This document shows positions 10,649 through 56,600 of a stretch of DNA of 64,000 nucleotides, piece by piece. The translations under genes were made by a program, and so were the position numbers. Below the pieces are notes generated by a model that did no database searches, was not told where the DNA came from, and saw only the letters and a program-made list of their open reading frames with translations. The stretch spans positions 1 to 64,000 of IMG/VR virus record IMGVR_UViG_3300032030_000033. One strand, given 5' to 3'. Numbering within the stretch: the first letter of the stretch is position 1; each line of letters begins with the position of its first letter. Source of the DNA: a virus (taxonomy: Duplodnaviria > Caudoviricetes).

Positions 10649-10687
10649 TGTATAATCTCCTAAATTACTATAAAATTAACTTATATC

Positions 10688-13365: not shown

Positions 13366-13384
13366 TGATTTCTTCCTTGTAAAA

Positions 13385-13391
13385 TTAACTT
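13385..13391 (-). promoter_or_regulatory. Putative late promoter AAGTTAA for portal (SD-led class)
   Basis: Motif, then AAGGAAG, ATG 19 nt downstream. Confidence 0.7.
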
Positions 13392-13395
13392 AGTT

Positions 13396-17386: not shown

Positions 17387-17569
17387 ATGGAAGAAAACGA
17401 ATATGTATTTAAGTTGTCAGTTAACGAGGTTAATAGATTAATAAACGCATTAAATGATCAAACAAACAGAGTTGTTTCAAAACTGCAAACTCAATTCGCA
17501 GAGCAACAGCCAAGGAAGATAGAAGATGAGAATGAGCTTCTAATGGAGGATAACAATGGCAACGCTTAA
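17387..17569 (+). CDS. Small coiled-coil hypothetical protein
   Basis: Strong SD, promoter, overlap with next gene. Confidence 0.7.
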   Translation: MEENEYVFKLSVNEVNRLINALNDQTNRVVSKLQTQFAEQQPRKIEDENELLMEDNNGNA

Positions 17570-18284
17570 TGAAATAAACATTAGCAAAAATTTTGAAAAT
17601 TACTCTCAAAGAAATAATGAGCTATTGTCACATGTTAGCTGCGGACCAACTAACATGATACAAGCTCTTGAATATGCAGGGTGGGAGTGGAACAACAAGC
17701 AATTTCCAGAATTAAAACAACCAGAAGACAAACTTTTAAAATTTACCAGAACCAATGAAAATGTTTTAAAATACTACGAAAAAAAATATAAAAATATGTA
17801 TAGAAACTGGGTTGAAGAAGCAAAATCTTTGCAAAAAGAAGGTCAAGAATTGTGGGAAGTAGATTGTAAAAAATCATATCCACCAAACGAAATTCATGAT
17901 GTCATGAATTTCGCAACAAACGCTTTTCTTGGTTATACAGAAGAAAATATAAATAATAAACATTATGCTACATATTTATCAAACACTTTTCACATAGCTA
18001 CTGTTCTCATGCAGCTTGAAATTGGACTACCTGTTGTAACTTCTGTAAGGTTCGGCGGTTTTGGGCATTATATTACTATTGTTGGTTGTCAATGGAAAGG
18101 TAAGTATTTAACACCAGACACCGTTGTAAATTTTATTATTGATAACACATATGGAAGATTTAATTTTAAAACGGAACAATATGAAAATGTAAGCGGAAAC
18201 GATAATTTAATTTCAAAAGAAGAATTGCTGTCAAGAGCAAGACCAGTAATGCATTTATTTAGATCAGGGGCTTTAACTATGTAA
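17556..18284 (+). CDS. Peptidase C39-like cysteine peptidase
   Basis: YSQR...SCGPT (Cys), GHYITIVG (His), IIDNTYG; GGAGG SD. Confidence 0.8.
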   Translation: MATLNEINISKNFENYSQRNNELLSHVSCGPTNMIQALEYAGWEWNNKQFPELKQPEDKLLKFTRTNENVLKYYEKKYKNMYRNWVEEAKSLQKEGQELWEVDCKKSYPPNEIHDVMNFATNAFLGYTEENINNKHYATYLSNTFHIATVLMQLEIGLPVVTSVRFGGFGHYITIVGCQWKGKYLTPDTVVNFIIDNTYGRFNFKTEQYENVSGNDNLISKEELLSRARPVMHLFRSGALTM

Positions 18285-21569: not shown

Positions 21570-21573
21570 ATAA

Positions 21574-21580
21574 TTAACTT
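21574..21580 (-). promoter_or_regulatory. Putative late promoter AAGTTAA for large terminase (leaderless)
   Basis: AAGTTAA-TTAT-ATG right after a terminator. Confidence 0.7.
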
Positions 21581-21585
21581 AAAAC

Positions 21586-23862: not shown

Positions 23863-23880
23863 ACAATTAACTTAAACAAT

Positions 23881-24556: not shown

Positions 24557-24581
24557 TCCTTGTTATGTAATTAACTTAATC

Positions 24582-28418: not shown

Positions 28419-28422
28419 AGAA

Positions 28423-29526
28423 TTAACTTAAATACTTGTCCTTATCTGGATCCTTTGGATATTTACAGTTGTAAAAAACAATATTATTAAAGCCTTTGCC
28501 TCTTAATTTTATAATATCTGCATTTATTTCTTTGTTGCCTTTAAGATATGATGGTAGATAAATTTTATTAATTAAATCAAGAGTTATAAATTTTCCTTCT
28601 GGAACTCTGTGTCTAACTTCCATATGTTCATTCGAGGTGTCATTTTTTAAAAGTTTAAAGTCATGTATTAAATCTTTAATTTTTCTTTTGTCTGGACACC
28701 ATTTTCCCAAAAAATTTGCAATTTCTTCAAACTCTTGTATAGACATTTTTCTTAAATTCTTTTTTATATATTCACACTTTTTTTTGAAAACTGGCGGCAT
28801 TCCCAATTTACCATTTTCGACCGTTTCTTTGTAAACATTATCCAGAGATTTTAAAACGAATAATCTATACTGTATTGGGTATTCTTGTATAGGTCTCGCT
28901 TTTCCAAATTTATTTTTAAGTCTATCTTCTTTAAATGAAAATTTTATATCTCCAGCTTCCGGGGATAATTTAAGTGTTGGATGGTTATCTGGAGTTCTAT
29001 CTGAACGAACAAAACAAAACTCGTTTGTTACCTTTCCGCCGTAAGTTTTTGAAAGGTTGGCGTGAAAAAAACTTCCACTTAGCCCTTTACCATTTACTAA
29101 ACTATTTACAATTCCATGAAAATTTTCAACATTTGTATAATGATAAAAGCTAGATTCATCTTTCTCATACTTGCCATCTATACTGTGATATAATTCGTTA
29201 ATTACTTCTTCGCTTAAAGTTTTATTTTTATTAATCATTTCATTAAATTTTTTAAACTCTGGAGATTTATAAAAAAAATCAAAAAAAGACATTTTATTTT
29301 TTTTAAAAAAAGAAATAACTTTTTTTTCAAGTCCTGGATGTGCCATTAAAAAATCACACTGTTCGTCGGTAATTCCTCCAGACTCTACAAATTCTTCATA
29401 TTCTGAGTCACCATTATATTCTTTTAATGTTTTTTTCTTTCTAAAACTTTCCCTGTCTTTTAAAAATTCTTCTCTTTCTTGAAAAAATTTTCGTTTTTCT
29501 TCTTCTAAATTTTGCTTTTTTTTCAT
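28423..29526 (-). CDS. Putative ADP-ribosyltransferase-fold protein with long acidic propeptide
   Basis: FYHYTN...I...GL...FCFVRS...EHMEVR pattern (H-Y-T / CF / E-x-x-E-x-R); N-terminal LEEE, LKE, LSEE, INE sites; start set to ATG at 29526. Confidence 0.5.
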   Translation of the reverse strand: MKKKQNLEEEKRKFFQEREEFLKDRESFRKKKTLKEYNGDSEYEEFVESGGITDEQCDFLMAHPGLEKKVISFFKKNKMSFFDFFYKSPEFKKFNEMINKNKTLSEEVINELYHSIDGKYEKDESSFYHYTNVENFHGIVNSLVNGKGLSGSFFHANLSKTYGGKVTNEFCFVRSDRTPDNHPTLKLSPEAGDIKFSFKEDRLKNKFGKARPIQEYPIQYRLFVLKSLDNVYKETVENGKLGMPPVFKKKCEYIKKNLRKMSIQEFEEIANFLGKWCPDKRKIKDLIHDFKLLKNDTSNEHMEVRHRVPEGKFITLDLINKIYLPSYLKGNKEINADIIKLRGKGFNNIVFYNCKYPKDPDKDKYLS

Positions 29527-30667: not shown

Positions 30668-30671
30668 ACAA

Positions 30672-31415
30672 TTAACTTAGTTTTGATAATTTGTATCTAC
30701 AATGCTTATTCCATTCTTTTGTTTTTGATAATTCTATTTTATAAAATTTTGTGTCTGGCAAGAAAGAATATAAATAATCTAAATTTTCTTCACCAACTAA
30801 TCCTCTTTCTAGACTTTCTTTTGTGCCAACATAAAAAGCACTTACGTCACAATTATAAAAATAAACACTTCTATTATCGAAGATATAAAAACTTTTTTCA
30901 TCTAGGCTTCTTACAGCGTTTAGTATAAATCTATCTTCTCCATTTACTAAATCTATGTCTCTTTTAATTGGCTTAAAGAAACTCTTCAAGGCTTCTGTTT
31001 TGTAAAACCTACACCAAACCCCAGTTCCATAACATGACAAATTGTTTATATTAATACTTGATTTAAACTCAGAGTCGGGTCTTTTAAAGCCAAACTGTAA
31101 AATGTTTTCAGTTCTTCCTGTAAAATCTTCTTCTCTTACAAAATCTATTATATCATCGTCTGCATCAACAAACCAAACATAATCGCCCTCTGCTACATCT
31201 AATCCTAACCTTCTTCCTTCTAGGATATAACAATTTTTGCCCTTTGAAACATATTTATATTTTGTTTCAAAGGGCTTTTGGTTATCTCTATTATCAACAA
31301 GAATTATTTCATGATTTGCTAGAACATATTTTTCCACAGAAGAAATAATATGCTCTAGTTTATCATAGTCTTTATCGCAAAAGACTATGATAACAGACAA
31401 ATTAGTCTTCTTCAT
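30672..31415 (-). CDS. Family 2 glycosyltransferase
   Basis: Start set at MKKTNLSVII; EIILVDN, GRRLGL..AEGDYVWFVDADD, VW.RFYK, GED. Confidence 0.85.
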   Translation of the reverse strand: MKKTNLSVIIVFCDKDYDKLEHIISSVEKYVLANHEIILVDNRDNQKPFETKYKYVSKGKNCYILEGRRLGLDVAEGDYVWFVDADDDIIDFVREEDFTGRTENILQFGFKRPDSEFKSSININNLSCYGTGVWCRFYKTEALKSFFKPIKRDIDLVNGEDRFILNAVRSLDEKSFYIFDNRSVYFYNCDVSAFYVGTKESLERGLVGEENLDYLYSFLPDTKFYKIELSKTKEWNKHCRYKLSKLS

Positions 31416-31935
31416 AAGTAACGTTAAGTGTGTAGTCCTCGTAGTAAGAAGGTCTAGAAACAACATTAGAGCTTATAATGTTTGGAGTTTCTTCTCCTTC
31501 GTCTGGAGTAAGAGCTGGGTAAGTTTCTGAATCACCAGAGAACTGTTGGAATGTAGCTCCTCCTCCAAAGCTACCAGTTTCTCCATTATGCTCGTAGTTA
31601 AGATGTAATGAATAAACATTATGCTCGTTTATATCACCAGTATATGTTAATTCTACTACAAAAATGTCTCCAGAACCTAGATCAAAATAAACAGTTTTTG
31701 TTTTAGTTGCTACTGGTGTTGGCTCATCTTCTTCTACTGGTTCTTCATCCTCGGCCACTGCTTTTAATTTATTTGCTGGGATGCCTACAATTTCTGTTGG
31801 TGCTTTTGAGTTAGCGTCATATACTAATTCACCCTCTACTGCTTTTGCAATTGCAATTTTTGCTAAAGGGTTTCTTGCTTCTGTATCATAAGAATATGAT
31901 ACGCCATCTACTTCAAAACTTGATATGTTTGCCAT
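31402..31935 (-). CDS. Putative virion decoration protein (N-terminal domain shared with 35157..35393)
   Basis: MANISSFEVDGVSYSYDTEARNPLAK..GELVY, acidic/Pro linker, beta-rich C-terminal domain. Confidence 0.55.
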   Translation of the reverse strand: MANISSFEVDGVSYSYDTEARNPLAKIAIAKAVEGELVYDANSKAPTEIVGIPANKLKAVAEDEEPVEEDEPTPVATKTKTVYFDLGSGDIFVVELTYTGDINEHNVYSLHLNYEHNGETGSFGGGATFQQFSGDSETYPALTPDEGEETPNIISSNVVSRPSYYEDYTLNVTYEED

Positions 31936-31961
31936 ATTTATTCTCCTTTATTTAATTAACT

Positions 31962-32762
31962 TTACCATATATGAAAAATGAAGCGACCGCCGTTCCAAAT
32001 AATCTCACACCCGCCAAACAAGGCTAATCCAGTATATAAAACCATATCGCCATAATCATTATTTGTAGCCATAAGAATGGCTCCAGACACTATCATTGGA
32101 ACAGTTGTTGCTGGTATTATTATATTTACAGCAGCATTTGCTCTTTTTTGCTTCTGTTCGTAATCTAATACAACTTCTTTAAATTCTTCATTTAGTTTTT
32201 TCAAATTATCATTTTCTGATTTAATCTTATTGTTTTCTTCTGTTATATCACCAATGATTTCAATTGCTAGCGCGGTATCTTCTTTATTGCTTATCAGTGC
32301 TTTCGTTGCTAAGTCCAAGCAATTCTGTAAGTCTTGCGATAGTTTGTTCATCTTGTTCAGCTTTGATTCCAGCAAGCTGTAAGATGTAGTCTGTTGTTCC
32401 CGCAACTGCTTCGATTCCTCTCGTACGACTTTCAAGCTCTCTCTGGCTAGACTTAATAACTGACTTACACTCATCGACAAGAGATTGGAGTTCTCTATTT
32501 TTGAGAGTAGCATCTTCGATTTGCTCGACTGCGACATTGTCCCCGTCTCCGATAGAATTGAGTATGCCTCCAAGATTGTTTGCGTCATTTGAGATTTTAT
32601 CTGTTGAGGTGTCAATGTTGTTGATTGACTGTTCAACTCTGTTGCTATCAAGTTCAAGTCCTCTAACTCTGGTGTATCTTCCTGCGAAAAAACAGGAAAC
32701 ACAAAGAATGATAACAATACCGATACTAATAAAAAATTTCTTATCAATTTTGATTTCCACAT
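31962..32762 (-). CDS. Spanin-like envelope protein 1 (signal peptide, coiled coil, two C-terminal hydrophobic segments)
   Basis: MWKSKLIRNFLLVSVLLSFFVFPVFS|QE signal; heptad-rich middle; hydrophobic C-terminus ending FIFHIW. Confidence 0.55.
   Translation of the reverse strand: MWKSKLIRNFLLVSVLLSFFVFPVFSQEDTPELEDLNLIATELNSQSTTLTPQQIKSQMTQTILEAYSILSETGTMSQSSKSKMLLSKIENSNLLSMSVSQLLSLARESLKVVREESKQLREQQTTSYSLLESKLNKMNKLSQDLQNCLDLATKALISNKEDTALAIEIIGDITEENNKIKSENDNLKKLNEEFKEVVLDYEQKQKRANAAVNIIIPATTVPMIVSGAILMATNNDYGDMVLYTGLALFGGCEIIWNGGRFIFHIW
32284..32760 (-). CDS. Spanin-like envelope protein 2, fully nested out of frame (TM or lipoprotein signal plus coiled coil)
   Basis: GTG start 2 nt after the ATG of the host gene; KKFFISIGIVIILCVSC then coiled coil. 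Confidence 0.55.
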   Translation of the reverse strand: MEIKIDKKFFISIGIVIILCVSCFFAGRYTRVRGLELDSNRVEQSINNIDTSTDKISNDANNLGGILNSIGDGDNVAVEQIEDATLKNRELQSLVDECKSVIKSSQRELESRTRGIEAVAGTTDYILQLAGIKAEQDEQTIARLTELLGLSNESTDKQ

Positions 32763-32906
32763 TTATTCTCCTTTAAAATTTCTTCAACCTTATCTTTTAT
32801 GTTTTCATTATATAAAATTCTTTGTAATTTTATATTATGCTTTTTTGCGTATTTTCTTTTCATCCAGTCGTGATGTTTTTGAACTAAAAAATCGTGACTA
32901 CCATAC
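32744..32906 (-). pseudogene. C-terminal remnant of a PD-(D/E)xK homing endonuclease
   Basis: YGSHDFLVQKHHDWMKRKYAKKHNIKLQRILYNE matches the C-terminus of 37108..38010 (FGGLESFKKQRENDCKKKNYAKKNKIMLLEVPYWE); no plausible start. Confidence 0.6.
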
Positions 32907-33488
32907 ACGGACTGTATTAAGAACCATCTGTATATGCTCCTGAAGTTCTGTTTGGTTATAAGCAACTTTTGAGGGGTTTGTATAATTATTTCCATTTGGG
33001 TTATAAGCGTTATCTATCATTTGGTTTAGCTGTTTAATTAAATTATCTCTGCCGTCTTTAACCGAATAACATTGTTTAACACTTATATTTGAAAATCCAG
33101 GACAAATTGTATAATAATTACAAAGCCCTAAATGATAAATTCTATAACATTTTTTTGGTATGTTTGGACGATTCATTTTTATATAATAATAAAATTGTCT
33201 CGGATTTACAATTTGTCCACCGCGTTTCATCATATAGATTAACCTTAATAGCCACTGCAAATCGTTTAAATCCATATAATGAAGATTAAAGCCGTGAGCA
33301 TATTGTTTTCCATTTTTTGCTGTATAGGTTCCCATATAAAGAATAGTAGGGGTTCTGTCGTGCCTGAAGTTTTGATAATTTCCTGAAATGATTGCACCAA
33401 TAGGCCAATTACGAGTTTTTATAAAACCTGTAACAACTGATGATTTTATATTTCTTAACCAGTCAATTATACTTTTAAAGAAAGACAT
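32898..33488 (-). CDS. T4 gp2-like DNA end protector protein
   Basis: DRTPTILY...GFNLHYM...KKCYRIYH; GAGG SD. Confidence 0.65.
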   Translation of the reverse strand: MSFFKSIIDWLRNIKSSVVTGFIKTRNWPIGAIISGNYQNFRHDRTPTILYMGTYTAKNGKQYAHGFNLHYMDLNDLQWLLRLIYMMKRGGQIVNPRQFYYYIKMNRPNIPKKCYRIYHLGLCNYYTICPGFSNISVKQCYSVKDGRDNLIKQLNQMIDNAYNPNGNNYTNPSKVAYNQTELQEHIQMVLNTVRVW

Positions 33489-33496
33489 ATTTCCTC

Positions 33497-34768
33497 CTAA
33501 AATTTATAAACTTCTTTTTTTAACCCTTGTAGTTTTCCAAAATCTCCACAAAATAAACATTTAAGTTTTCCAAGTTCGTTGCTATCTATGTATTTATCGT
33601 CACCATATTCTATTTCTAGCTTTTTACTATTAAGAATATAAGCAATAGTTTTTAAGACAAACTCTGCCTCTAACTTTTGAAGTTCACAAAACATTTTTTT
33701 ATTTACATATCTACAGAAGGTCGCTGAACCACCACATAACTTTAAAAACTTACACTCAGGGCAATTTTCATCCATTGCCTCTTGGTATTTTTTTAAACCG
33801 CTTTCGAATTGATTGTCGACATATGCTTTCAAATCAAATCCATTTCTTAAATTTCCTATTGGTGGCTTATGCCCTATCGAATAATTACAATCGTAAATTT
33901 CTCCATCTTTATAAAAGCAAAGTGTTGAAAAGTCAATTGCACAGTAGGCAAACTTATCATTATTTAACAATTTCCAGCAAATATCGTTAGTTTTTATAAA
34001 GTTTAACCAAGCCCATTTTCCCTCTATAACTTTTTGATAAAACTTATCATAAAATTTTTTAAAATTACTTATTATTTTTTCAATGTTTACTGGCCTGTCT
34101 CTTAGTATATTAAATCTCACAAAACAAGCCCCTAGGCTTTTACACTCTTCTACAACTTCCCATATGTCTGTTTCTTCTGTTACCGTAATTTCAAGTTCTA
34201 CTTTAAAATTATTTTCTACTAATTTTTTTATATTATTTTTTACAACTTCTTGTTTATCTCTGTTAATTTTTTGATATTTTTCTCCATCATAACTAACCTT
34301 AAAAAAACTATTCATTTTTTTATAAGAAACAAGAAATTTTTCTAGTTGTAAATTATAGCCGTTTGTAATAAAAAGAACTTTAGAATTTGGAAATTCTTTT
34401 TTTATATAAAAAACAGTTCTTAAAAACTGTTCTGGGTTAATTATTGGTTCTCCAGTAAAACTAATTTGAAAACTTATTGGTTTATCAATATTAGATTTTT
34501 TTATGTAATCTACAATTTCTTTATAATCTTCAAAAATAAAATCTCTTGTTTTTTCTTTTACATAGCAATAAGAACATCTAAAATTGCAAGATGAATTTGG
34601 AGTAATTGTAAATACCACTCCGTCTTCTCTTCTTCTTTTTTCGTCTAACAACTTAAAATCCTCTTCTGGATTTATAATTGAATTTCCATTTTCCAAAATT
34701 AGCGAATTGTTTTTACTATAATAGACAGCTTTAAGTTCTGGTATTTCAAACTTTTCATCTATATTCAT
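33497..34768 (-). CDS. Radical SAM / SPASM-domain maturase-like enzyme
   Basis: CNFRCSYC, TGEP, TNG, SYDG; SPASM C...GEIYDC...IGNL...CPECKFLKLCGG..C..C. Confidence 0.9.
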   Translation of the reverse strand: MNIDEKFEIPELKAVYYSKNNSLILENGNSIINPEEDFKLLDEKRRREDGVVFTITPNSSCNFRCSYCYVKEKTRDFIFEDYKEIVDYIKKSNIDKPISFQISFTGEPIINPEQFLRTVFYIKKEFPNSKVLFITNGYNLQLEKFLVSYKKMNSFFKVSYDGEKYQKINRDKQEVVKNNIKKLVENNFKVELEITVTEETDIWEVVEECKSLGACFVRFNILRDRPVNIEKIISNFKKFYDKFYQKVIEGKWAWLNFIKTNDICWKLLNNDKFAYCAIDFSTLCFYKDGEIYDCNYSIGHKPPIGNLRNGFDLKAYVDNQFESGLKKYQEAMDENCPECKFLKLCGGSATFCRYVNKKMFCELQKLEAEFVLKTIAYILNSKKLEIEYGDDKYIDSNELGKLKCLFCGDFGKLQGLKKEVYKF

Positions 34769-35156: not shown

Positions 35157-35393
35157 TTAAAGAACTTCTGTTGGTGAAACGTGTGATTTAATTGTGAATG
35201 TTTTTTCTGCTGTAGAAACTTCTGTTCCATTGATTACTGGAACTTTTTTTGTTTCTGTTACTGCTTCGTCAATCTTATAAACCAACTCACCATCAAGAGC
35301 TTTCTTAATATTCTTCTTTGCCAAAGGACTTCTTGATTCTGTGTCGTAAGCGTATGAAACACCGTTTACTTCAAAATTCTGAATATTTGCCAT
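35157..35393 (-). CDS. Small putative virion protein, paralogue of the 31402..31935 N-domain
   Basis: Start set to MANIQNFEVNGVSYAYDTESRSPLAK..GELVY (AAGGAG SD, late motif). Confidence 0.65.
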   Translation of the reverse strand: MANIQNFEVNGVSYAYDTESRSPLAKKNIKKALDGELVYKIDEAVTETKKVPVINGTEVSTAEKTFTIKSHVSPTEVL

Positions 35394-35422
35394 GTTATTC
35401 TCCTTTATATTTAACTTAGTAT

Positions 35423-44066: not shown

Positions 44067-44089
44067 CTTTTCTCCAACAATTAACTTAA

Positions 44090-47000
44090 TTATACAATTC
44101 TTAAAATATAACCATTAAGAACTATATTTGTTCCACTAATGTTTCCACCACTTGTGCTATCAATAGTTATACTACCAGTAGTAGAAACAGAACCATTACT
44201 CATAGCTCCAACGGTTATATCACCAGAAGCAGTAATTTCAGAGTTTGAACCGCTTAAATTTGATATATCTACATTAGTTCCGCTAAAAGAACCACCAGTT
44301 GCGCTACTAACAGTTATGTCACCAGAAGCTTCAATTGTTCCACCGCTCATTCCATTAGTAATTTCAACATTTTCACCTTCTATTTTACCACTACCGCTTA
44401 AAGTATTAATAGTAACACCAGTTCCAGATACAGAACCGCCAGACATTGCACCAGTTATACTAATTGCTCCACTTCCACTTATAGTTCCGTCAGACATAGA
44501 ACCAATAGTAACACTAGTTCCAGATGCAGAACCACCAGACATTGCACCAGTTATACTAATTGCACCAGTTCCAGTTATAGTTCCGTCAGATACAGAGCCA
44601 ATAGTAACACTAGTTCCAGATGCAGAACCACCAGACATTGCACCAGTTATACTAATTGCTCCACTTCCACTTATAGTTCCGTCAGATACAGAACCAATAG
44701 TAATGTTTTTGCTTGTTCCAGTAGTTTTAATAGTTCCGCCAGATACTTCTCCGTTTATATTAATTTCACCAGTTCCAGTTATAGTTCCGTCAGATACAGA
44801 ACCAATAGAAATGTTTTTGTTTGTTCCAGAAGTTGTAACAGAACCACCAGATACCGCTCCGTTTATACTAATTGCGCCAGTTCCAGATACAGAACCACCA
44901 GATACAGAGCCGATAGAAATACCTTTATCAGTTCCAGTAGTTGTAGCAGAACCACTAGACATAGTAGTTATATCAATTGCACCAGTTCCAGATACAGAAC
45001 CAGTTCCAGACAAAGTAGCTATACTAATGTCTTTGTCATCTCCAGAAGTTGTAGCAGAACCACCAGACATAGTAGTTATACTAATTGCACCAGTTATTTC
45101 AACATTACCACCAGAAACGTTTTGAACTGTGGCACTTCCTGCTGTTATGTCGCCGTCTGATTTAAGAGTTCCTTTAACTTCTAAATTGTTTGTTACTTCA
45201 AGAGAACCTCCGCTAATTGTTTTATCGGCAGAAGTCATAGATACACTATTAGCCTTTATATTTCCTCCAATAGTGATAGCAGAAGCGTTAGTTATTGAAC
45301 CACTTACATCGAGAGTGTCACCAGATACATTACCACCAGATACACCTTTGGCTTTTATTTCGTTAGCAATAGTAGTAGTAGCGCTAGTTATTGAACCACT
45401 TACATCGAGTGTATCACCAGATACAGAACCACCAGATATACTTCCGCCTGTTATTCCGCCAGAAACGCTAATAGAAGCATTGCTAATTGTTCCACTATTT
45501 GTAATACTAGTTGCTCCTTCAATGGTTCCACCGTTGATTGTTCCACTATTTGTAATTGCTCCAGTAATAATAATATCTGTTGGGTTTTCACTTGTTCCAA
45601 TATAACCACTACTATTGTTTGTAATTGAGTTTGCAGAAACTTCTGCAGCTTCAATTGTTCCGCTGTTTGATAATGTTTTTGTTTCGATTACGCCTTCTAT
45701 CTCTTCTGTTCCAACTACATTAATTATTGCATTCTGGTTGTTTGTTAATGAGTTTGCTGAAACTGATTCGCTCTCGATTGTTCCGTTATTTGTAATAGCT
45801 CCAGTAACACTAGTATCTCCAGTGATTGAATTTTTGTTATCTAAGCTAGCACTACTAACTTTTCCACTAATTGTTCCGTTATTTGTAATAGCTCCAGTAA
45901 CACTAGTATCTCCAGTGATTGAATTTTTGTTATCTAAGCTAGCACTACTAACTTTTCCACTAATTGTTCCGTTATTTGTAATAGCTCCAGTAATAGTAGT
46001 AGCTCCAGTGATTGAGCTTTTGTTATCCAGGCTTGCACTACCAACAGAACCACTAATTGTTCCATTATTTGTGATAGTTCCAGTAATATCAACATTACTT
46101 GTTATTTTTGCAGTTCCGCTATTGCTCAAACTAGTACCACTAACTGTTCCGCCACTAATTGTTCCATTATTTGTAATGGCTCCAGAAACAGTAACGTCTG
46201 AGTTTTCTATTTTTGCTCCTGTTCCGCTACTTGTTAAAGTGCTACCGTAAATAGTAGAACCTTTAATAGCTCCAGAAGAAGTTATTTGACCAGCTCCAGT
46301 GGCATCATTTCTTAATCCCTGTGCGTTAGTTGTTAAGTTGATTACAGAGTTTTCTTGAATTGTACCAGTTTGGCTAAGAGTTGCTGTATCACCATAGAGA
46401 GTTGTGTTTTTAATTACTCCATCAAGTACAAGATCGTTAGCGTTTACTGTTCCACCATCTATATTTTTTGCAGTAAGAGAACCAGTAATGTTAATTGTAT
46501 TGGCTTCTATCTTACCAGAAATATCAGCGTCTACTGTGTTAACTGTGTCTGCCGAAGCATTATTTGCCAATGTATCTTGAACATCTAATTTTCTTGCAAT
46601 TATATCACCAGTTGAATTTATGTTTCCAACACTAAGAGAACTTAATGTTCCAACACCAGCATTACTAATTCCGTAATTTCCAATACTAAGAGAGCTTAAT
46701 GTTCCAACACCAGCATTACTAATTCCGTAATTTCCAATTTTTAAACTTACCGCACTAACATTTCCGTTTTTATCAACAGAAGCTTTATTGTTAAAATTAA
46801 CTGCAGTATTGTATGTTAAATTAATGTTTTTAGCGTTTTCTAATGTTATATCTGAAATAAGAGAATTGCTTGCAGAACCACCAATTTTTATAGAGCCATT
46901 TTGTAATGTTCTTAATTTGATTATGCTGCTATCAATTTCTAAATAAGAATCAGATGATCCAAGTTTAGATTTAGTATTTATTTGTAGTCCATTAGAACTA

Positions 47001-50000
47001 GTTCCTAAAGTTATACCATTGTTTGCAGATATATCTATTTTTTTCTCTGTTCCTAAAACATTAACAAATGTATTTTCACCAGATTTAATTTTAATTGAGC
47101 TTTTATCTTCGGCAGGGTCACCTTCTTTTGTAGAAGCTATAATTGTATTATCTCCGATAGTTGCAATTATAGCTTCATCTTTAAGCTCAATTTTTGAAGT
47201 ATCTGTATTAAAAATGTTAACGCCATGTGTTGTATTATCAGTATTTGTTTCGATGTCGATATAGCCATCTTTATTTGAAAGCTTTGCTAAGTTTTTATTA
47301 AGATTAATTTCTGATTTACTTCCACCTTCGTTTATACCAATTTTTCCAGTGGTATTTGTAAGTTCAATAGAACTAGCATTTGTAGCTCCACTGTCTTGTG
47401 ATTTTATTGTTATTTGGTTTCTTGATGTTAAACTAACAGTAGTTTTGCTTAAATCCAAAACATTGTTTGTAGCAGTTATTTTGAAACTATTTCCAGCAAT
47501 AGTAGAATCACCAGCTTTTGTTGCTTTTAGGGCTCCATTAAGGGTTAAGCTTTCAGTATTATCTGCACCATAAATTATTAATTTTGCTGTTCCGTTTCCA
47601 TTAGCGTTTCCGCTGTTATCTCCAATATAAACATTACCGTCTAACCAAGTTTTTCCGTGGAAATCAAAATCTGTATAAAGATTGCTACCACTTGCTGCTT
47701 TATTTTTTCCCCAGAATATAGCTTTTATTGGCAAATAATTAGCGTCAGAAGCAGTTGCTTTTGATTTTGCTAAAAGATAAGAGTTATCATTATTTGTAGC
47801 CAAATGACCAAATACAACATCACCAGAGAATTGCGAAGCTCCATTTATATAAAAACTTGGAGATTCGTTTTCGTTTTCAAGAAGGCTTCCAGTAGCCATA
47901 GAAGTATTAATTAAATTAACACTACCAATAGATAATCTTCTTTTAATCCATTGTGTTCCATAAAGCATTAAGTCAGAAGTATCTATATTAGCATTATCAG
48001 AATCCTTACCAAAAACCACCTTTCCAGATTCAACGCTTAACGCTGTGTTGTTTCTTGGTAATCTATTATCAGAAATAAAGTAATTATCTGTTATAATACT
48101 ATCTATATATTTATCGTTTGTAGGCAAACAAACAGTTTTATTTACAGAGTTATAATCAAAGTTATTATAATTTTTATTTTTAATAATTAATGCTTTGTTG
48201 AAAGTTGCGTTTTCTGTAAATTTAGAGTTTTCATCAAGTGTTATATCTCCAGAAAGATATGAACGTCCATTAACTCTAAACATATATAGAGAGTCGGCAG
48301 AGTTTACTTTGCTTCCATTTTCGATAGGGCTAAACTCTTCATTATATCTTTTATAGTCATCTGCTTTATTAGGTGTTGGAACGCCGCTTGAATTCTCAGC
48401 GTTTGAAATTGATGAGGCAGATTTATCAACTACAAGTTCTCCATTTAAAACAGATTGTCCTTTTACAACCAAAGCCGAATTATCTTCGGTTGAAGAATCA
48501 GAATGACAATTTATAAATGCCTGTCTTTTAACCCATAATTTCTTTCTAATTTCTGTTCCTTGTGGTTTCATATAAACCAAGGCACCGTTAGTATTGCTCT
48601 CTGTGTTGGTGTTAGTAGATGGAGCAGAATTTTCAGCCCTGCTTAATACAAAAGAGATACCACTAGTATTATTAGAAAAAATAGTGTTCATCTTATTTGC
48701 TGTTGAGTTTGCAAAGTTTATAGTAGAAAGATTTTTTCTAGTTGTAGTATCTCTATTAATATATATAGAAGAAACATTATATATATTAGAGTTTCCAAGA
48801 TTCAAAGCACCTTTTGTAAGACTATCATCATTAGAAACGTCTGTGCTTCTGTCTGCTAAATAAATACTTCCAAAGTATCCATTTTTGATAAATGAATTAA
48901 GCCATCTACCTTCTGAATCTATTGAATCATCTGTTGTGTTTGTATAGAATCTACTATTTTTACCAGAACCTAAATTATATATTTCATCATATGAAGGGTT
49001 CTGAGAGCCATATAACTTAAAGATTTTCTTAACATGGTTATTTCCATCAGAAGTTGTTCCGTTTCTAATAGTTAATGTTTCTAATGGAGTAGAACTATTT
49101 GATTCAGATAATCTAAGATGGAAAAATCTATTAGAACTATCACCATTAAAGGCAATATTACCAACATAAGTATCACCCTCTGCTGAACCAGTTAGTGCTT
49201 TGTTGCTTGCATTTGCTTTACTATTTCCAATGGTAAAAAGTATAGAACTTTCGCTGCTAGTATTTAAATCCCCAATTTTTCTTATAACTAACTGACCATT
49301 ATTCTTACTTCTGATTCTTGTTATTCCAAGAATGTCAACCATGTTTGTATCATAATCGTGAGTATTTCTTATGTTAATTCTGTTAGTTTTATAATCTAAA
49401 TTTTCAGTTCCATCATTATTGACATTAAAAGTATATATGTTAATATTACCCTTAGAAGCGGAAATATCTAATGGTTTATTAGGTGTGTTAGAAAATAATT
49501 TTACACCTTTATTTGTATCAATTATCAATCCTTGATTTGTAAAATCATTATGATAAGTGTAAGATATATTGCCAGTTTCTAGATTTTTTACAGGAGTAGA
49601 TTCCTCAAAAAAATCAGATGGTGTATCACCTTTTTTTGAATCGGACCAACTGTTTGTTTGTGGGTTAGTGTTACCAGTTTTGTCATTTTTAACGTCTGTG
49701 ATTCTTACAATTGGTGATGTAATTCTTGTTTGGTTATTAGAGCTTTCTTCATGGTCTTCGGTAATTTCAAAACTTCTCGAAGGATTGTTGATAGAGTCTC
49801 TAATGTTGATATAATTAATTAAATCAGTTCTTGTGTTTGACTCTAATGTATTTAATTCTGCTCTTTTGGTAGAAATTAATCTTCTATCCATTATATCATA
49901 TACAGGTAAAGAATCTAAAATTTCAATTCTGTTAGGAACTTTATTTTCTTTTTTAAATACATAAGCAATCAAAGGGAACATTGTTTCTCTGTTATACTCA

Positions 50001-51520
50001 GGTGAAGAATTTAAAATAGAATTTATGTCAAGTTCTGAAAGTTTTTTATTATTTATTTTATAGTCAGAAATTCTACCCTCTCCATCTAAAACATAAGAAA
50101 TGTCAAAAGGTGTAGTTACAAGTTTATATTTACCTGTTTTATCATAACTTTCTTTTAGTTTGTTGTTGCTATCTGCTTCTGTGTCATAAACCAAAACGTT
50201 TAATTTATCATCATTTAAAATAGCTACAGTTGGCTCAAGAGAAACGTAATTATTTAAAGTTTCTGTTTTTGTCAAGTAAGAATTAAAATAATTAACAAAG
50301 GCATTAGTTGTTTGAAATATGTTATCATAATAACGCTGTTCTGTTTTGCTAGTTGCTGGTATGCTCTCTATTCTTGCTCCATTATTGTTACCCATTAAAT
50401 CATAAGCAAAACCATCGTCTAATCTAATTGTGATTTTGTAATTATTTGTTTCTTTTGAGCTTGTAGATTTACAAATTAATTTAACACCACTTTTAATTTC
50501 TTCACCAATAGTTGTTGTAAACATTTCTGCTTGTAAAGTTTTACAGTTTGTGTTAACCTCTGTAAACAACAGCTGATTTATTGTCTCTGAAGAAGCATTA
50601 CCTTTTATAGAAAATTGAAAATTTTCTATTGTTTTATTGTTATCAAAAACAGTAATGTTATATGTATGATGCAAGTATTCTTGCCCCTCTACATTAGAAT
50701 TGATTTCTTCAAGAACAAATTTCCAAGAAGAGTTTTCTGATTTGTTAGGGAGCCAAGTTATTTCATCTTCACCAGAAGTAGATCTTACAACATTAATATA
50801 ATAACCAATACGATGTCTTATATTTCCGTTTTCATCTTTCTCATAAACAATGTTTCCTTCTTCATCTCTTTCGTATTTATATGTGACAGAGTCTTCTTCC
50901 ATTTCATACTCTGGGTTACCAAAAGAATCATATTTTTGAAAGCCAGTTTCTTCATCAAGAACTGGGATTCTTTTAGCTGCAGGAATCATATCATAATAAA
51001 CTTTGATGTCATTCGAAAGATCTGATAAGTCTAATTGTATAAGGTTAGCTAATTGTCTTTCATACAAGCCAATGTTAGGTTGATTATTTACAACATAACT
51101 GTGCCAATCGTCTTGTGTAAAATTAGATTTATTTAGTTTATCTTTGTAGTCAAACTCACCCTTTTTAGAAAAAGGATTGCCATTGTTAGAACCGTCTTCA
51201 CTGTCTTCTTTTATACGTCCGAATAAAAACCCCAAAGGAATTCTTAAGTAATAATTATTTATGTTGTTCTTATAAGAACCAACTGATGAAAATTTATCGT
51301 AAAATTCTTCCAAAACATCTGGGATAATTCCAGAATAGTTTCCATAAACTGTTTTTGAAAGTGTTTGAAGTAAGTTATATATTTCTTCTTGATTTTCGTA
51401 TAAATTATTTATAGGTCTATTAATTGTTCTGGCTGATATAGAATCATTAGATACAGTAAACTCAGTTCCTAAACCATCTTCATATTCGTCAACTGAATTG
51501 CCATAACTTTTGTATTTCAT
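44090..51520 (-). CDS. Long tail fibre / tail spike protein
   Basis: Start set to MKYKS (GAAGGAG SD); N-terminal INRPINNLYEN fibre-attachment-like motif; C-terminal ~900 aa of G/S/T/I beta-repeats. Confidence 0.75.
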   Translation of the reverse strand: MKYKSYGNSVDEYEDGLGTEFTVSNDSISARTINRPINNLYENQEEIYNLLQTLSKTVYGNYSGIIPDVLEEFYDKFSSVGSYKNNINNYYLRIPLGFLFGRIKEDSEDGSNNGNPFSKKGEFDYKDKLNKSNFTQDDWHSYVVNNQPNIGLYERQLANLIQLDLSDLSNDIKVYYDMIPAAKRIPVLDEETGFQKYDSFGNPEYEMEEDSVTYKYERDEEGNIVYEKDENGNIRHRIGYYINVVRSTSGEDEITWLPNKSENSSWKFVLEEINSNVEGQEYLHHTYNITVFDNNKTIENFQFSIKGNASSETINQLLFTEVNTNCKTLQAEMFTTTIGEEIKSGVKLICKSTSSKETNNYKITIRLDDGFAYDLMGNNNGARIESIPATSKTEQRYYDNIFQTTNAFVNYFNSYLTKTETLNNYVSLEPTVAILNDDKLNVLVYDTEADSNNKLKESYDKTGKYKLVTTPFDISYVLDGEGRISDYKINNKKLSELDINSILNSSPEYNRETMFPLIAYVFKKENKVPNRIEILDSLPVYDIMDRRLISTKRAELNTLESNTRTDLINYINIRDSINNPSRSFEITEDHEESSNNQTRITSPIVRITDVKNDKTGNTNPQTNSWSDSKKGDTPSDFFEESTPVKNLETGNISYTYHNDFTNQGLIIDTNKGVKLFSNTPNKPLDISASKGNINIYTFNVNNDGTENLDYKTNRINIRNTHDYDTNMVDILGITRIRSKNNGQLVIRKIGDLNTSSESSILFTIGNSKANASNKALTGSAEGDTYVGNIAFNGDSSNRFFHLRLSESNSSTPLETLTIRNGTTSDGNNHVKKIFKLYGSQNPSYDEIYNLGSGKNSRFYTNTTDDSIDSEGRWLNSFIKNGYFGSIYLADRSTDVSNDDSLTKGALNLGNSNIYNVSSIYINRDTTTRKNLSTINFANSTANKMNTIFSNNTSGISFVLSRAENSAPSTNTNTESNTNGALVYMKPQGTEIRKKLWVKRQAFINCHSDSSTEDNSALVVKGQSVLNGELVVDKSASSISNAENSSGVPTPNKADDYKRYNEEFSPIENGSKVNSADSLYMFRVNGRSYLSGDITLDENSKFTENATFNKALIIKNKNYNNFDYNSVNKTVCLPTNDKYIDSIITDNYFISDNRLPRNNTALSVESGKVVFGKDSDNANIDTSDLMLYGTQWIKRRLSIGSVNLINTSMATGSLLENENESPSFYINGASQFSGDVVFGHLATNNDNSYLLAKSKATASDANYLPIKAIFWGKNKAASGSNLYTDFDFHGKTWLDGNVYIGDNSGNANGNGTAKLIIYGADNTESLTLNGALKATKAGDSTIAGNSFKITATNNVLDLSKTTVSLTSRNQITIKSQDSGATNASSIELTNTTGKIGINEGGSKSEINLNKNLAKLSNKDGYIDIETNTDNTTHGVNIFNTDTSKIELKDEAIIATIGDNTIIASTKEGDPAEDKSSIKIKSGENTFVNVLGTEKKIDISANNGITLGTSSNGLQINTKSKLGSSDSYLEIDSSIIKLRTLQNGSIKIGGSASNSLISDITLENAKNINLTYNTAVNFNNKASVDKNGNVSAVSLKIGNYGISNAGVGTLSSLSIGNYGISNAGVGTLSSLSVGNINSTGDIIARKLDVQDTLANNASADTVNTVDADISGKIEANTINITGSLTAKNIDGGTVNANDLVLDGVIKNTTLYGDTATLSQTGTIQENSVINLTTNAQGLRNDATGAGQITSSGAIKGSTIYGSTLTSSGTGAKIENSDVTVSGAITNNGTISGGTVSGTSLSNSGTAKITSNVDITGTITNNGTISGSVGSASLDNKSSITGATTITGAITNNGTISGKVSSASLDNKNSITGDTSVTGAITNNGTISGKVSSASLDNKNSITGDTSVTGAITNNGTIESESVSANSLTNNQNAIINVVGTEEIEGVIETKTLSNSGTIEAAEVSANSITNNSSGYIGTSENPTDIIITGAITNSGTINGGTIEGATSITNSGTISNASISVSGGITGGSISGGSVSGDTLDVSGSITSATTTIANEIKAKGVSGGNVSGDTLDVSGSITNASAITIGGNIKANSVSMTSADKTISGGSLEVTNNLEVKGTLKSDGDITAGSATVQNVSGGNVEITGAISITTMSGGSATTSGDDKDISIATLSGTGSVSGTGAIDITTMSSGSATTTGTDKGISIGSVSGGSVSGTGAISINGAVSGGSVTTSGTNKNISIGSVSDGTITGTGEININGEVSGGTIKTTGTSKNITIGSVSDGTISGSGAISITGAMSGGSASGTSVTIGSVSDGTITGTGAISITGAMSGGSASGTSVTIGSMSDGTISGSGAISITGAMSGGSVSGTGVTINTLSGSGKIEGENVEITNGMSGGTIEASGDITVSSATGGSFSGTNVDISNLSGSNSEITASGDITVGAMSNGSVSTTGSITIDSTSGGNISGTNIVLNGYILRIV
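44441..44700. repeat. 96-bp (32-aa) tandem repeats in tail fibre
   Basis: agacattgcaccagttatactaattgc recurs at 44441, 44537, 44633. Confidence 0.85.
45779..46070. repeat. 93-bp (31-aa) tandem repeats in tail fibre
   Basis: ttccgttatttgtaatagctccagtaa at 45781, 45874, 45967; first two units identical. Confidence 0.85.
46630..46738. repeat. 54-bp (18-aa) tandem repeat IGNYGISNAGVGTLSSLS
   Basis: cttaatgttccaacaccagcattactaattccgtaatttccaat at 46641 and 46695. Confidence 0.85.
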
Positions 51521-51545
51521 TTTTACTCCTTCTCTAATATATAAA

Positions 51546-51552
51546 TTAACTT
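51546..51552 (-). promoter_or_regulatory. Putative late promoter AAGTTAA for tail fibre
   Basis: Between terminator and SD. Confidence 0.7.
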
Positions 51553-51564
51553 TTACAAACAAAT

Positions 51565-53684: not shown

Positions 53685-56600
53685 TTACATAATCTCTACA
53701 AGAGGTTTTCCAAAAGAAGTTTGAAGTCCCACAGTATTTTCTCCTAAGCTTCTTACAATACTTTCAAACCCGTTTTTAAAAGAGACTTGAAGATCCGTAA
53801 CAGCAGAAGAAGCTTGTTTTGCAATGCCTTCAATAAATCCATTTTCAAAAGAAGTTTGAAGAGCTACAACAGCGAAAGAAGCTTGTTTTGCAATGCCTTC
53901 AATAAATCCATTTTCAAAAGAAGCTTGAAAACCTCTAATATAAGGTATAACTTGATTTACAACACCTTCAACAAGTCCATCTTCAAATCTACTAAATAAA
54001 CTAAATCTATTAAACAAGACAGCCAAACAACTTTTCTCAACCCTTGTTTCCTTTTTAACACTAACGCCACCAAAAGAAATTTTAAATGTTTTAAAAACTT
54101 TTAAGTAATTAGAGAAAACTTCTTCAAAGAGTATATTGCCTTCTTTTGCAAAAACGGCGCTAATTTTATTAAAAATTACTTTAGCTTTACTAATACTATT
54201 TTCTATAGTAAAGTCTTTTAAAGACAGAGATTTTATTATAGTTATAAAATTATTAGAAATTAGCCCTACAAGTCTAAAATGTTTAAAAGAAATAGAATTG
54301 GTAGTTATTGCAATAACAGGTTTTACACATGTGGAAATTAACCTCCAACTTTCAAAAGGAGTCTGAATAGAAACAGTAACATCGCTGTATCCAAAGCTTA
54401 AAATTCTCTGAAAGAACGACTCAAATGCAATCATTGAAGCAATGCTTATTTTTGAAGCAAAAGAAGACACTAAGTTTTTTAAGTTTTTAGCATATGTGCC
54501 TTTTAAAGCAAAAAGGTCGTCAAAGCTAAAATCTATATTTTGCTTAAATAAAGCATTTTTTATATTTCGAACTAAGCTAACGGCTGGATTTACAAAACTA
54601 TATATTTTTTGTTTTATACCAAGTGGTTTAATAGTTTTAAGAACATATTTAAGCGATTTACTAACTTTTGCTGTAAACCTATAAGCTGCTCGTTTTATTT
54701 CCCTTCCAATGCTTATATTAGATTTTTTAATACGACTTCTAAGATTAAAATTAGTAATCTTAATACTCTTTGCTAATCTAACAAAACTATCGCGTATTGT
54801 TGGTATTATTATAACAGCTTTACCCTTAATGCTTCTATTAATGTTTAATATTGCTTTATTAACAACATTTTTAAAAGTATTATTGCTAAGTTTAATAGTT
54901 CTTGCAATGCGATTAAAAGCTCTATCAAGATCAAAGTTTATGTTTATATGTTTTTCAAAAGTATTTAAACCCTTAAATACTTTTGAAGTTTTAAATTTAC
55001 TAATAAATCTAAAGCTTTGTCTTGCTACAAAGCGTAGTTTTTTAACAAGCATTTTTGTCACTTTGTTAATTTTCGTATTGCTTCCAGAATTTATAAGTTT
55101 TGAAACAAATACAGTCGAACGATTAAACAATGATGTTGCCAGTAGGCTTAAGAGTTTTACTTTACGATAAATAATTGTATATAAAAGAGTTACTGATTTA
55201 ACGTTGGCTGCATGAATATTTTTACATTTTAATACAACATTGCCATCTTTATCAGTGTAGATTTCACATCCGTAATCTTTTAGTATTATATTATCGTTAA
55301 AATCGACTGGATTATTAGAGCTATCTAATTCTGTTGCTGGGTGAACGTTGATAATATTTTCATCAATGTTTTTTATTTTTTCTACATTGTCTAATTTAAA
55401 TTCTGCTCCAACTACACCCTCATCAATTAGCAGCATACCTTTTTGGTGCTCAGAAAACTCAACTTCTTTACCGTTCTTTATTATTATTGGGAGTTTGTTT
55501 TTTGAAAATTTTTGTAAATCATCTGTATAAACAGCTTTTTCTTTTTTTCCAGAAACATATTTATTATATTTTTCTTCGTCAATTATTTCTATCTTTTCAT
55601 AGAAGTTGTTTTTACTAGGGTCTATACCTTTATCCAACTCTTTTGTATTAACTAATTGAGTACATTCCTCATCATAATAATACTTCTTTAAAAGGTCTAA
55701 GTGAGTATCTTCTGTTGCAATAACCTCAGTTTTTAAGAAATAAGAGTTTGTTACATTAGAGTTAATTAATCTATCATCTCCAAAAGATATATATTCAGTT
55801 GCATTGTTATATTCATCTTTTTCAATCCAATCTAATGATTTTGGAACAGAGATGTAGTTATCTATAAACTCTTCTCTAAGAGATTTAATGTTTAAATAGC
55901 CATAAACATTTTCGATTTCGCCAGGCATATTAAACTCTTCAAGTTCTTCTTGTGGTATATTTTTGAAGTTTGTATTATCAACAACTGTAAGCCTTATAAG
56001 AGCACCATCTTTAAGTCTGTTGATGTATTCATCACCACTTAGCAAATCAATTTTGTTGCCATTTTTGTCAATTGGATTACCATATTCATCTGTAATAGGC
56101 TTTTTGTTTATGTCTAAAACTTCTATATCTATTTTTTCGAAATCCTTTAAAAGAAAATGGCTATATTTTTGCCAAGAAGTTAATTCGTTTTTCCTTGTAT
56201 AATCAAAAGCGGTAAAGAAAACTGGCCTAATACAAGTAAAGATTTTTTTGTATTCTTGTTCTATTGTTTTTTTAAGTTCCTCTCTCGCAGCTTGACTATT
56301 TAATTTATCAAGTGTTTCTTTTTTAAAGTATCTATTAAAATCAAAGCCAATACTTCTAATGAGCAAAACTCTATCTATAAAGAACGAAACTGAAACATTC
56401 TTCTCTTCATCGTAGTTTACATTTATTTTTTCAAATTTCAACTTTAAAGAGCTTATAGAACTACCATTATTTTCATAAGAGCTTAACAGTGTTGATGGGA
56501 ACTTTAATGTTCCAGCACGTCCATCAAGTGTATCAGTTAGTTTTGGATATAAGAAGCTTGGACGCTTTCCAACAGTTTCCATTTGAAGTGGTAAAACGTC

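Follow-up and report, generated by a model that had tools for sequence, protein, structure and literature searches.

The window, the whole 64,000-nucleotide stretch analysed here, covers positions 1 to 64,000 of the IMG/VR virus record IMGVR_UViG_3300032030_000033 (Duplodnaviria; Caudoviricetes). On its minus strand it contains two reading frames, called L and S in the following, that open 2 nt apart behind a single Shine-Dalgarno (SD) motif, the shorter frame S being nested out of frame in the longer frame L. We conclude that this is very probably a true dual-coding locus, that is, two real and conserved genes in two frames, and that their products most likely form a two-subunit cell-envelope complex. 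An initial annotation, made from the sequence of the window, had described the locus as an atypical spanin pair of co-initiated partners. Its observation of two nested frames behind one start site is confirmed, and the coordinates of the single SD, of the ATG and GTG 2 nt apart, and of the 158-amino-acid (aa) frame within the 266-aa frame are all reproduced; the identification as spanins is not upheld.

Layout of the locus

The start region reads AAGGAG, the spacer AATAA and then ATGTGG on the minus strand (in the window sequence, AAAGGAGA is followed by 4 nt and ATGTG). The features are listed in Table 1. S occupies the first 60% of L, and the N-termini of both proteins, each consisting of a basic part followed by a hydrophobic part, are read from the same nucleotides, as had been noted initially and as is seen in both translations: MWKSKLIRNFLLVSVLLSFFVFPVFS|QED in L, where the bar marks the predicted cleavage site, and MEIKIDKKFFISIGIVIILCVSCFFAGRYTR in S. 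Around the stop codon of S, the L block contains K154, S158 and D162, which are invariant in all four of the L proteins compared (4/4). A promoter and terminator scan of 31300-33600 finds 12 promoter-like sites, where 9.8 are expected, and no terminators.

Table 1. Positions of the features in the window
Feature	Position	Strand	Remarks
SD motif AAGGAG	32768..32773	minus	one motif for both frames
ATGTG double start	32758..32762	minus	ATG (32762-32760) of L; GTG (32760-32758) of S
Gene L, 266 aa from ATG	31962..32762	minus	predicted signal peptide, helical middle part, C-terminal helical hairpin
Gene S, 158 aa from GTG	32284..32760	minus	+2 frame, wholly inside L; predicted N-terminal membrane anchor, remainder helical
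L signal peptide, residues 1-26	32685..32762	minus	predicted by our own -3/-1 heuristic; VFS|QED, signal-peptidase-I-type site
S transmembrane helix, residues 9-27	32680..32736	minus	predicted, hydropathy 2.65; same bases as the L signal peptide
S stop TAA (32286-32284)	32284..32288	minus	spans L codons N159-K160, at the onset of the best conserved block of L
L residues 214-266	31965..32123	minus	hydrophobic helices 214-230 and 241-257; short acidic loop; aromatic C-terminus HIW
TAAGTTAATT, copies 1-4	10674-10683, 13383-13392, 21572-21581, 23865-23874	minus
TAAGTTAATT, copies 5-8	24569-24578, 28421-28430, 30670-30679, 44079-44088	minus

Conservation of both frames

The nested arrangement is found in eight loci, namely the window and the loci L003, L004, L005, L009, L011, L012 and L015, with identities to the window down to 28-33% for S and 24-27% for L. 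Both frames are open and start together in all eight, so that the interruption of one frame by stops in homologues, which the initial annotation had named as grounds for rejecting its idea, is not observed, and the conservation in two frames for which it had proposed to look is found. When synonymous codons are redrawn from the codon usage of the phage while either protein is held, the other frame acquires 12-16 stops on average, and none of 20,000 draws is open, in both directions and in all four loci used (the window and three distant ones); when codons are merely permuted within the gene, 0-5.3% of the draws are open. Beyond its own stop, the S frame contains 12 stops across the remaining 108 codons of L.

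Each of the two proteins has a separate family. For S there are 27 database homologues of 139-167 aa, with E-values of at most 0.01 among 252 candidates. The S alignment consists of 21 homologues, the near-identical P0001 and six matches of partial coverage being left out, and the position of the S stop is conserved in 21 of 21. For L, a profile of four L proteins searched against 1.84 billion sequences matches 73 cluster representatives at E-values of at most 1e-3 (40 at 1e-10 or below, 8 at 1e-30 or below). Among these matches are full-length proteins (215-286 aa) and numerous C-terminal pieces about 100-130 aa in length, which appear because the gene caller takes S first and leaves the remainder; public calls mostly give S and a truncated L, and the locus thus marks a blind spot of gene calling. 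In the ESM Atlas, matches are limited to unnamed viral clusters.

Selection was assessed on the window and L011, which are 87% identical and align with no gaps. The whole overlap shows 40 changes in 473 sites, against 62 in 319 in the part that belongs to L only (p=1e-5). Sites that are synonymous in S only have changed in 13 of 115 cases and those synonymous in L only in 12 of 117, compared with 30 of 75 for ordinary synonymous sites in the L-only part (p=6e-6 and p=2e-6, respectively); single-frame synonymous sites thus change about 4-fold more slowly than ordinary ones. Taken together, these sequence comparisons show two open and conserved frames, each under purifying selection.

The same region can also be read as a single gene whose frame changes by +1 near 32284-32320, due to programmed frameshifting, a sequencing indel or a pseudogene, and whose product would have its N-terminus in the S frame and its C-terminus in the L frame. 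Such a single frameshifted gene was first suggested by a codon-usage scan, whose log-odds, trained on 28 long genes from the window, point to the S frame at about 32670-32340 and to the L frame only from about 32312 onward, the signal switching at about 32340-32310, and it would also suit the public gene calls, which are often S plus a 100-130-aa C-terminal piece of L. However, in all eight nested loci L can be read without interruption starting at its own ATG; the L signal peptide and the motif DLEEF..LA..L are conserved, also in the stand-alone tandem L of L010 and L014 described below; the S stop is kept in all 21 aligned homologues and in L010 is directly followed by the ATG of L; and S-synonymous sites are constrained. 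We take the homologous loci to rule out the single gene, and consider any form of this reading highly improbable. An additional fused S-L product may be made alongside the separate ones.

Geometry of the start site

Six of the eight nested loci have ATGTG, with L starting from ATG and S from GTG, and the other two have ATGnATG, in which S starts first and L follows 4 nt downstream (ATGGATG in L004 and ATGAATG in L012). When the SD of the window is aligned to the 16S 3' end, the ATG is at a distance (DtoStart) of 12 and the GTG at 14. This aligned spacing of 12/14 is shared by five of the six ATGTG loci, while both ATGnATG loci have 12/16; the SD is hence at a conserved aligned spacing in seven of the eight loci, the exception being L003 (14/16). 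As in a dual-frame start, two start codons in different frames follow one SD at a spacing that would leave both accessible. About half of the genes of the window have an SD (26 of 50, against a background of 12.6%), and therefore SD-guided initiation is plausible in the host.

In E. coli, the AUGUG reporters of Kohl et al. (2022; PMC9841429) yield both frames at a DtoStart of 12/14, with AUG ahead about 3.5-fold in vitro and 10-fold in vivo; a shorter spacing gives the GUG frame only and a longer one mostly the AUG frame. In the mechanism proposed here, the spacing of the single SD would put both start codons within reach of the ribosomal P site, and each initiation event would therefore commit to one frame. 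L and S would thus be translated from one site, in a ratio that depends on the start codons and on how they are spaced from the SD.

Comparable sites are known in bacteria. With the ambiguous AUGUG/GUGUG initiation described in E. coli (pqiA, tamA, narQ; PMC9841429), the window shares an AUGUG behind a strong SD at the aligned spacing of 12/14, the one at which both frames were translated in vitro and in vivo. In E. coli, the natural second frames have 10-15 codons (15 in pqiA and 10 in tamA) and unknown use, whereas the second frame here encodes a conserved 158-aa protein under purifying selection. As the sole earlier natural case, the same source names Thermus rnpA-rpmH, in which rpmH is nested in rnpA behind AUGGAUG and one SD (PMC9841429). 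That locus, too, has a short gene nested in a longer one in another frame, with one SD and starts a few bases apart, and its AUGGAUG is exactly the form of L004 and close to that of L012. The differences, as far as described, are that it lies in a bacterium and not in a phage, that the start here is mostly ATGTG rather than two ATGs, that the nested gene here has 158 codons whereas L34 has about 50, and that here both products are predicted membrane proteins that seemingly act together and whose family also occurs un-nested.

The start of lambda S105/S107 also has two start codons a few bases apart that give two membrane proteins at a set ratio; the lambda starts are in one frame, use two SD motifs and give near-identical proteins (PMC9841429), whereas S and L are read in different frames and have unrelated sequences. 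In the literature searched, no phage example of one start site feeding two frames was found, and the locus appears to be a rare natural case of this kind. It offers a conserved AUGUG site with two full-length conserved products, together with an ATGnATG variant in relatives, so that start-codon competition becomes testable on a real system.

Nested and tandem arrangements

In the loci L010 and L014, S and L are separate tandem genes in the order S, L. In L010, S (148 aa, ATG GAA ATA AAA, or MEIK...) begins with an ATG at the codon that is GTG in the window (MEIKIDK) and ends in TAA, and the ATG of L (249 aa) comes directly next. The S piece of L014 matches the S profile at E=4e-7. The alternative frames of the tandem genes of both loci hold 14-28 stops.

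The tandem pair L013/L014, in which L013 is cut by the end of the contig, serves as a control for the nested pair formed by the window and L011. In the tandem pair, the part of L homologous to the shared part has an amino acid identity of 61% and a third-position change of 0.447, and the rest of L has 78% and 0.462. In the nested pair, the corresponding values are 87% and 0.089 for the shared part and 78% and 0.343 for the rest. The shared part is thus the faster-evolving half of L when free and the slower half when nested. The existence of both forms of the same genes provides a natural before-and-after comparison of the cost of dual coding.

A tree built from 11 L proteins places the two tandem lineages on opposite sides of a split with 100/99 support, each beside nested forms, and 200 of 200 bootstrap trees require two changes of arrangement, the root of the tree being left open. 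S and L are homologous over their full length between the nested and tandem forms, and we therefore hold a change from nested to tandem to be more likely than the reverse: the tandem form would have arisen by duplication of the shared segment, with one frame decaying in each copy. Among six-frame pieces of at least 30 aa, no relics of the lost frame are found in the tandem genes. For spanins, Kongari et al. (PMC6139136) argue for the opposite direction of change. A fuller history, in which S was born by overprinting of L, the two became obligate partners at a fixed ratio in a lipoprotein-free lysis device that bridges or disrupts the envelope, and the pair was twice un-nested by duplication, is in our estimation rather unlikely.

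Apart from the pair itself, nothing is conserved across the loci; in an all-against-all comparison of neighbours, flanking genes are common only to close relatives. Nested or tandem, S and L travel as a unit.

Two further observations concern the relation of the two genes. The S proteins of the window and of L010 give weak matches (E about 5e-4 each) to the central part of the L-family profile, which is probably a matter of coiled-coil composition but may reflect distant kinship. In addition, the S homologue P0005, on a contig of 951 bp, is called with the N-terminus MWKLKRRIDVEIKIDKK, which puts an L-like MWKLK start, read in the S frame, nine codons ahead of the customary V/M-EIKIDKK. This start may be a small duplication of the start region and a possible intermediate of un-nesting.

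Predicted proteins and their complex

The signal peptide predicted for L has a basic n-region, a core of 13-15 residues and small residues at -3/-1. The signal-peptidase-I-like site VFS|QE that had been proposed is recovered by the -3/-1 heuristic, which finds such a cleavage site in most members of the L family. L is the sole protein with a signal peptide among the 90 open reading frames (ORFs) of the 103-kb parent record, which were searched for the Q-rule test described below. The structural model of L is all helical, with a predicted local distance difference test (pLDDT) value of 78.6, and its long helices 99-158 and 160-232 run into the C-terminal hairpin. The two C-terminal hydrophobic segments of the initial annotation are confirmed by hydropathy and are modelled as this helical hairpin, for which block-mean pLDDT is 88-97 across residues 201-260. 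The C-terminal residue is F or W in 27 of 32 L proteins. On average, the 12 residues before the hairpin carry a net charge of +3.4 and the loop -0.8 (27 of 32 sequences, five short ones being dropped and P0031 being mis-assigned). A role of the C-terminus as an outer-membrane beta signal, for which the aromatic end and an FTITF-like pattern might speak, is disfavoured by the confident helical model of the hairpin.

In S, the predicted transmembrane helix is followed by the conserved motif G-R-Y-T-R, in which G27 is invariant and R28 and R31 are nearly so; across the alignment, conservation is seen in the N-terminus MEIKIDKKFF...G-R-x-x-R and at the C-terminal end. The model of S has low confidence (pLDDT 47) and shows two long helices after the anchor with a break at 70-73. 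The stretch ILCVS-C in S had been put forward either as a possible lipobox or as an uncleaved transmembrane segment. The second part of this proposal stands, with a membrane helix at residues 9-27, and the first does not, since none of the 21 S proteins matches the lipobox pattern and the Cys positions are unconserved.

Among the variants listed for this region, contigs of two DNA runs have one base inserted and another deleted 8-9 bases away, at 32701 and 32709-32710. This pair of indels shifts three codons locally and restores both frames; it lies within the stretch that encodes the L signal peptide and the S membrane helix.

A heterodimer prediction, suggested in the initial annotation as a check, gives for L(27-266) and S a score of 0.47 (runs 0.47, 0.53 and 0.25), while the best control has 0.00; the runs agree in at least 45% of the contacts and the partner pLDDT is at least 57. 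Of 80 solved complexes, 58 reach the mark applied to such predictions, as do 2 of 110 mismatched pairs; with scores of 0.60 or below, only 7 of those 80 complexes reach it, along with both of the passing mismatches. Note that our prediction used our own alignments, so that these benchmark counts hold only roughly. The modelling thus lends weak support to binding between S and L.

Both S and L appear from their sequences to be membrane or envelope proteins, and a topology can be proposed on the same basis. L would be exported through a cleavable Sec signal and, as a long helical protein, be held in the membrane by its C-terminal hairpin, and S would be a single-pass membrane protein with a helical, hairpin-like domain.

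Possible functions

The reading closest to the initial annotation is a spanin system in which S is the i-spanin of the inner membrane and L its partner at or in the outer membrane, the two fusing or breaking that membrane at the lysis of a diderm host. In the models, S resembles an i-spanin in length and build, with its N-terminal helix and two long helices broken at 70-73. L is predicted to be exported and, as mentioned, mostly ends in F or W; the binding prediction would also suit such a pair, as would the frequency of Gln after the cleavage site, which fits a Bacteroidetes host. Moreover, the Rz family PF03245 is found in none of five related phage records, three of which are at least 94% complete, and the role is thus not visibly filled by another gene. 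As with lambda Rz/Rz1 (Kongari et al. 2018, PMC6139136), one phage gene is nested out of frame in another, and both encode envelope proteins. However, according to that survey, both two-component and unimolecular spanins are defined by an outer-membrane lipoprotein with a lipobox, and its pattern [LVI][ASTVI][GAS]C, or any lipid-anchor Cys, occurs in none of 32 L proteins where the signal peptide ends (one stray LISC lies at residues 4-7 of the L protein P0059) and in none of 21 S proteins. With no lipoprotein signal in S or L, there is therefore neither an o-spanin nor a u-spanin. For a unimolecular spanin of the T1 gp11 type, L has no N-terminal lipoylation signal, and its C-terminal membrane part is a two-helix hairpin, whose alpha-helical form suits the inner membrane. 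Neither S nor L matches an Rz/Rz1 family in Pfam or PHROGs, and no endolysin or holin is recognised beside the pair in 10 loci. The five related records contain Amidase_2 in one case and Phage_lysozyme, GH25, Amidase_3 and Rz in none, and this Amidase_2 gene, the sole endolysin-type domain, lies about 300 kb from the pair in a sugar-metabolism cluster rather than in a lysis context. The nesting is also the reverse of that in lambda: it is the Rz-like gene that is nested, with its start at position 0, at the common site, whereas about 70% of embedded o-spanins begin internally, at 0.4-0.5 of the i-spanin (PMC6139136). Furthermore, the S-L family has both nested and separate members, unlike any spanin family in the survey (PMC6139136). 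With a diderm host remaining conjecture, we consider a spanin system quite improbable, although a spanin-like or other lytic job, taken broadly, keeps a modest probability.

Two other functions can be weighed against the same loci. In one, L would be a holin-type protein that permeabilises the membrane through its glycine-rich hairpin, and S a co-made regulator that times lysis (compare lambda S105/S107 and T4 T/RI). The two C-terminal helices of L are indeed rich in Gly and joined by a short loop, and the phage has T4-type baseplate and prohead-protease genes; in T4, the lysis genes are scattered rather than clustered. In lambda, moreover, a double start fixes the ratio of holin to antiholin, as described in PMC9841429. 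However, no holin family in PHROGs or Pfam is matched, no endolysin is nearby, and L, with its cleavable signal, is far larger than usual holins; we therefore regard this function as unlikely. In the other, the pair would serve the membrane in a non-lytic way, by superinfection exclusion, a block of DNA entry, or early remodelling of the host envelope. S and L form a self-contained module whose surroundings vary, the window having radical-SAM, glycosyltransferase and HNH genes and the other loci different ones, as is typical of accessory genes, and both proteins are predicted to be membrane-bound with extracytoplasmic helices. On the other side, there is no similarity to the known exclusion proteins in PHROGs or PADLOC, and the pair is kept in all five related records (searched with S or L), which suits a core rather than an accessory function; this possibility thus seems doubtful, although it deserves some weight. 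For the two-subunit envelope complex that we prefer, disruption of the envelope at lysis, or the timing of this, is our best but tentative guess as to its job, and we give about the same weight to superinfection exclusion or a different role in the membrane.

Several points weigh against the interpretation of L and S as co-initiated genes for such a complex. At the level of the genes, the log-odds of the L frame are negative at about 32642-32342, so that by composition alone the 5' part of L is not coding-like; the site-class test rests on one close pair; the spacing rule of E. coli may fail in this host; and contigs from an RNA library that are identical to the window cover 32412-32717, which is no proof of transcription; their coverage of the locus is patchy, and its gaps carry no information. 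A word-index search with L matched no protein of 146-466 aa, and the Atlas recognition score for L is low (1659). At the level of the proteins, searches of Pfam, PHROGs, NCBIfam and PADLOC with S and L give nothing above the cut-offs and thus no pointer to a function, the matches below the cut-offs (Nsp1_C, ATP synthase b and ZorA) being coiled-coil noise, and Foldseek searches of BFVD and PDB with the L model give nothing at E-values of 0.001 or below; weak rows to tripartite alpha-pore-forming toxins (E 3.8-6.6) carry no evidence. The topology is likewise unsettled, as the charges of the L hairpin reverse the positive-inside rule if the middle domain is periplasmic, and the number of Lys and Arg residues in S, 3.4 before the helix and 3.8 after it, does not fix the orientation.

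Phage, host and neighbouring genes

The window has a G+C content of 30%, and nearly all of its genes are on the minus strand. The parent record of 103 kb, with an estimated completeness of 44%, carries genes for a portal protein, large terminase, T4-type baseplate, prohead protease and anaerobic ribonucleotide reductase. Relatives of the locus are on contigs of 90-386 kb, and the lineage is therefore one of jumbo-type phages. The stretch or near-copies of it are present in sheep and goat gut metagenome runs. No match is obtained by blastn of 31000-34000 against a phage collection, nor by a single-protein scan of viral contigs with S, and profile scans of genome contigs with the two alignments give no relative and no host clue.

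The diderm host that the initial annotation took to be implied is not borne out, since the hints conflict. Under the Q-rule of Bacteroidetes, Gln follows the cleavage site in 71% of cases on average, as against mostly less than 20% in the related phyla examined (PMC5837995). Among 37 L proteins, 25 have a Gln right after the predicted cleavage site (24 of 36 when P0081 and L015, which are identical, are taken as one), a count made on related sequences and in which the two tandem L proteins are without Gln; this frequency fits the Q-rule and would point to a diderm host. Frequent use of the SD is, however, unusual for Bacteroidetes and argues against that phylum.

The sequence TAAGTTAATT occurs in eight exact copies on the minus strand of the window (Table 1). 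All of them are at gene junctions and on the coding strand, with a start codon, mostly one that lacks an SD, following within a few bases. With one mismatch, 35 copies are found where 32 are expected, which is not above chance overall. The element may be a junction, re-initiation or promoter element of the phage.

Just downstream of L, a gene at 31402-31935 on the minus strand encodes a 177-aa protein whose N-terminal 40-70 residues recur at a small ORF at about 35359-35417, with 81% DNA identity. The same N-terminus fronts a 439-aa protein in L012 (3677-4996) that has chitobiase-C, Fn3-associated and Ig domains; it looks like a shared module on variable C-termini. The glycosyltransferase-2 ORF 30672-31466 (minus) overlaps the gene for the 177-aa protein, upstream of it, by 65 bases. 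Its true start is probably further in, because the Pfam match begins at residue 24 and there is an internal MKK at 18-20. Elsewhere in the window, two giant minus-strand ORFs, 44090-51562 (2490 aa) and 53685-60431 (2248 aa), have no PHROG match. The sole long ORF on the plus strand, 17556-18284 (242 aa), has a sub-threshold match to Peptidase_C39_2 (E 7e-5), and in L009 a 258-aa ORF at 746-1522, about 1.5 kb upstream of the pair, has a sub-threshold match to the same family (E 1e-3).

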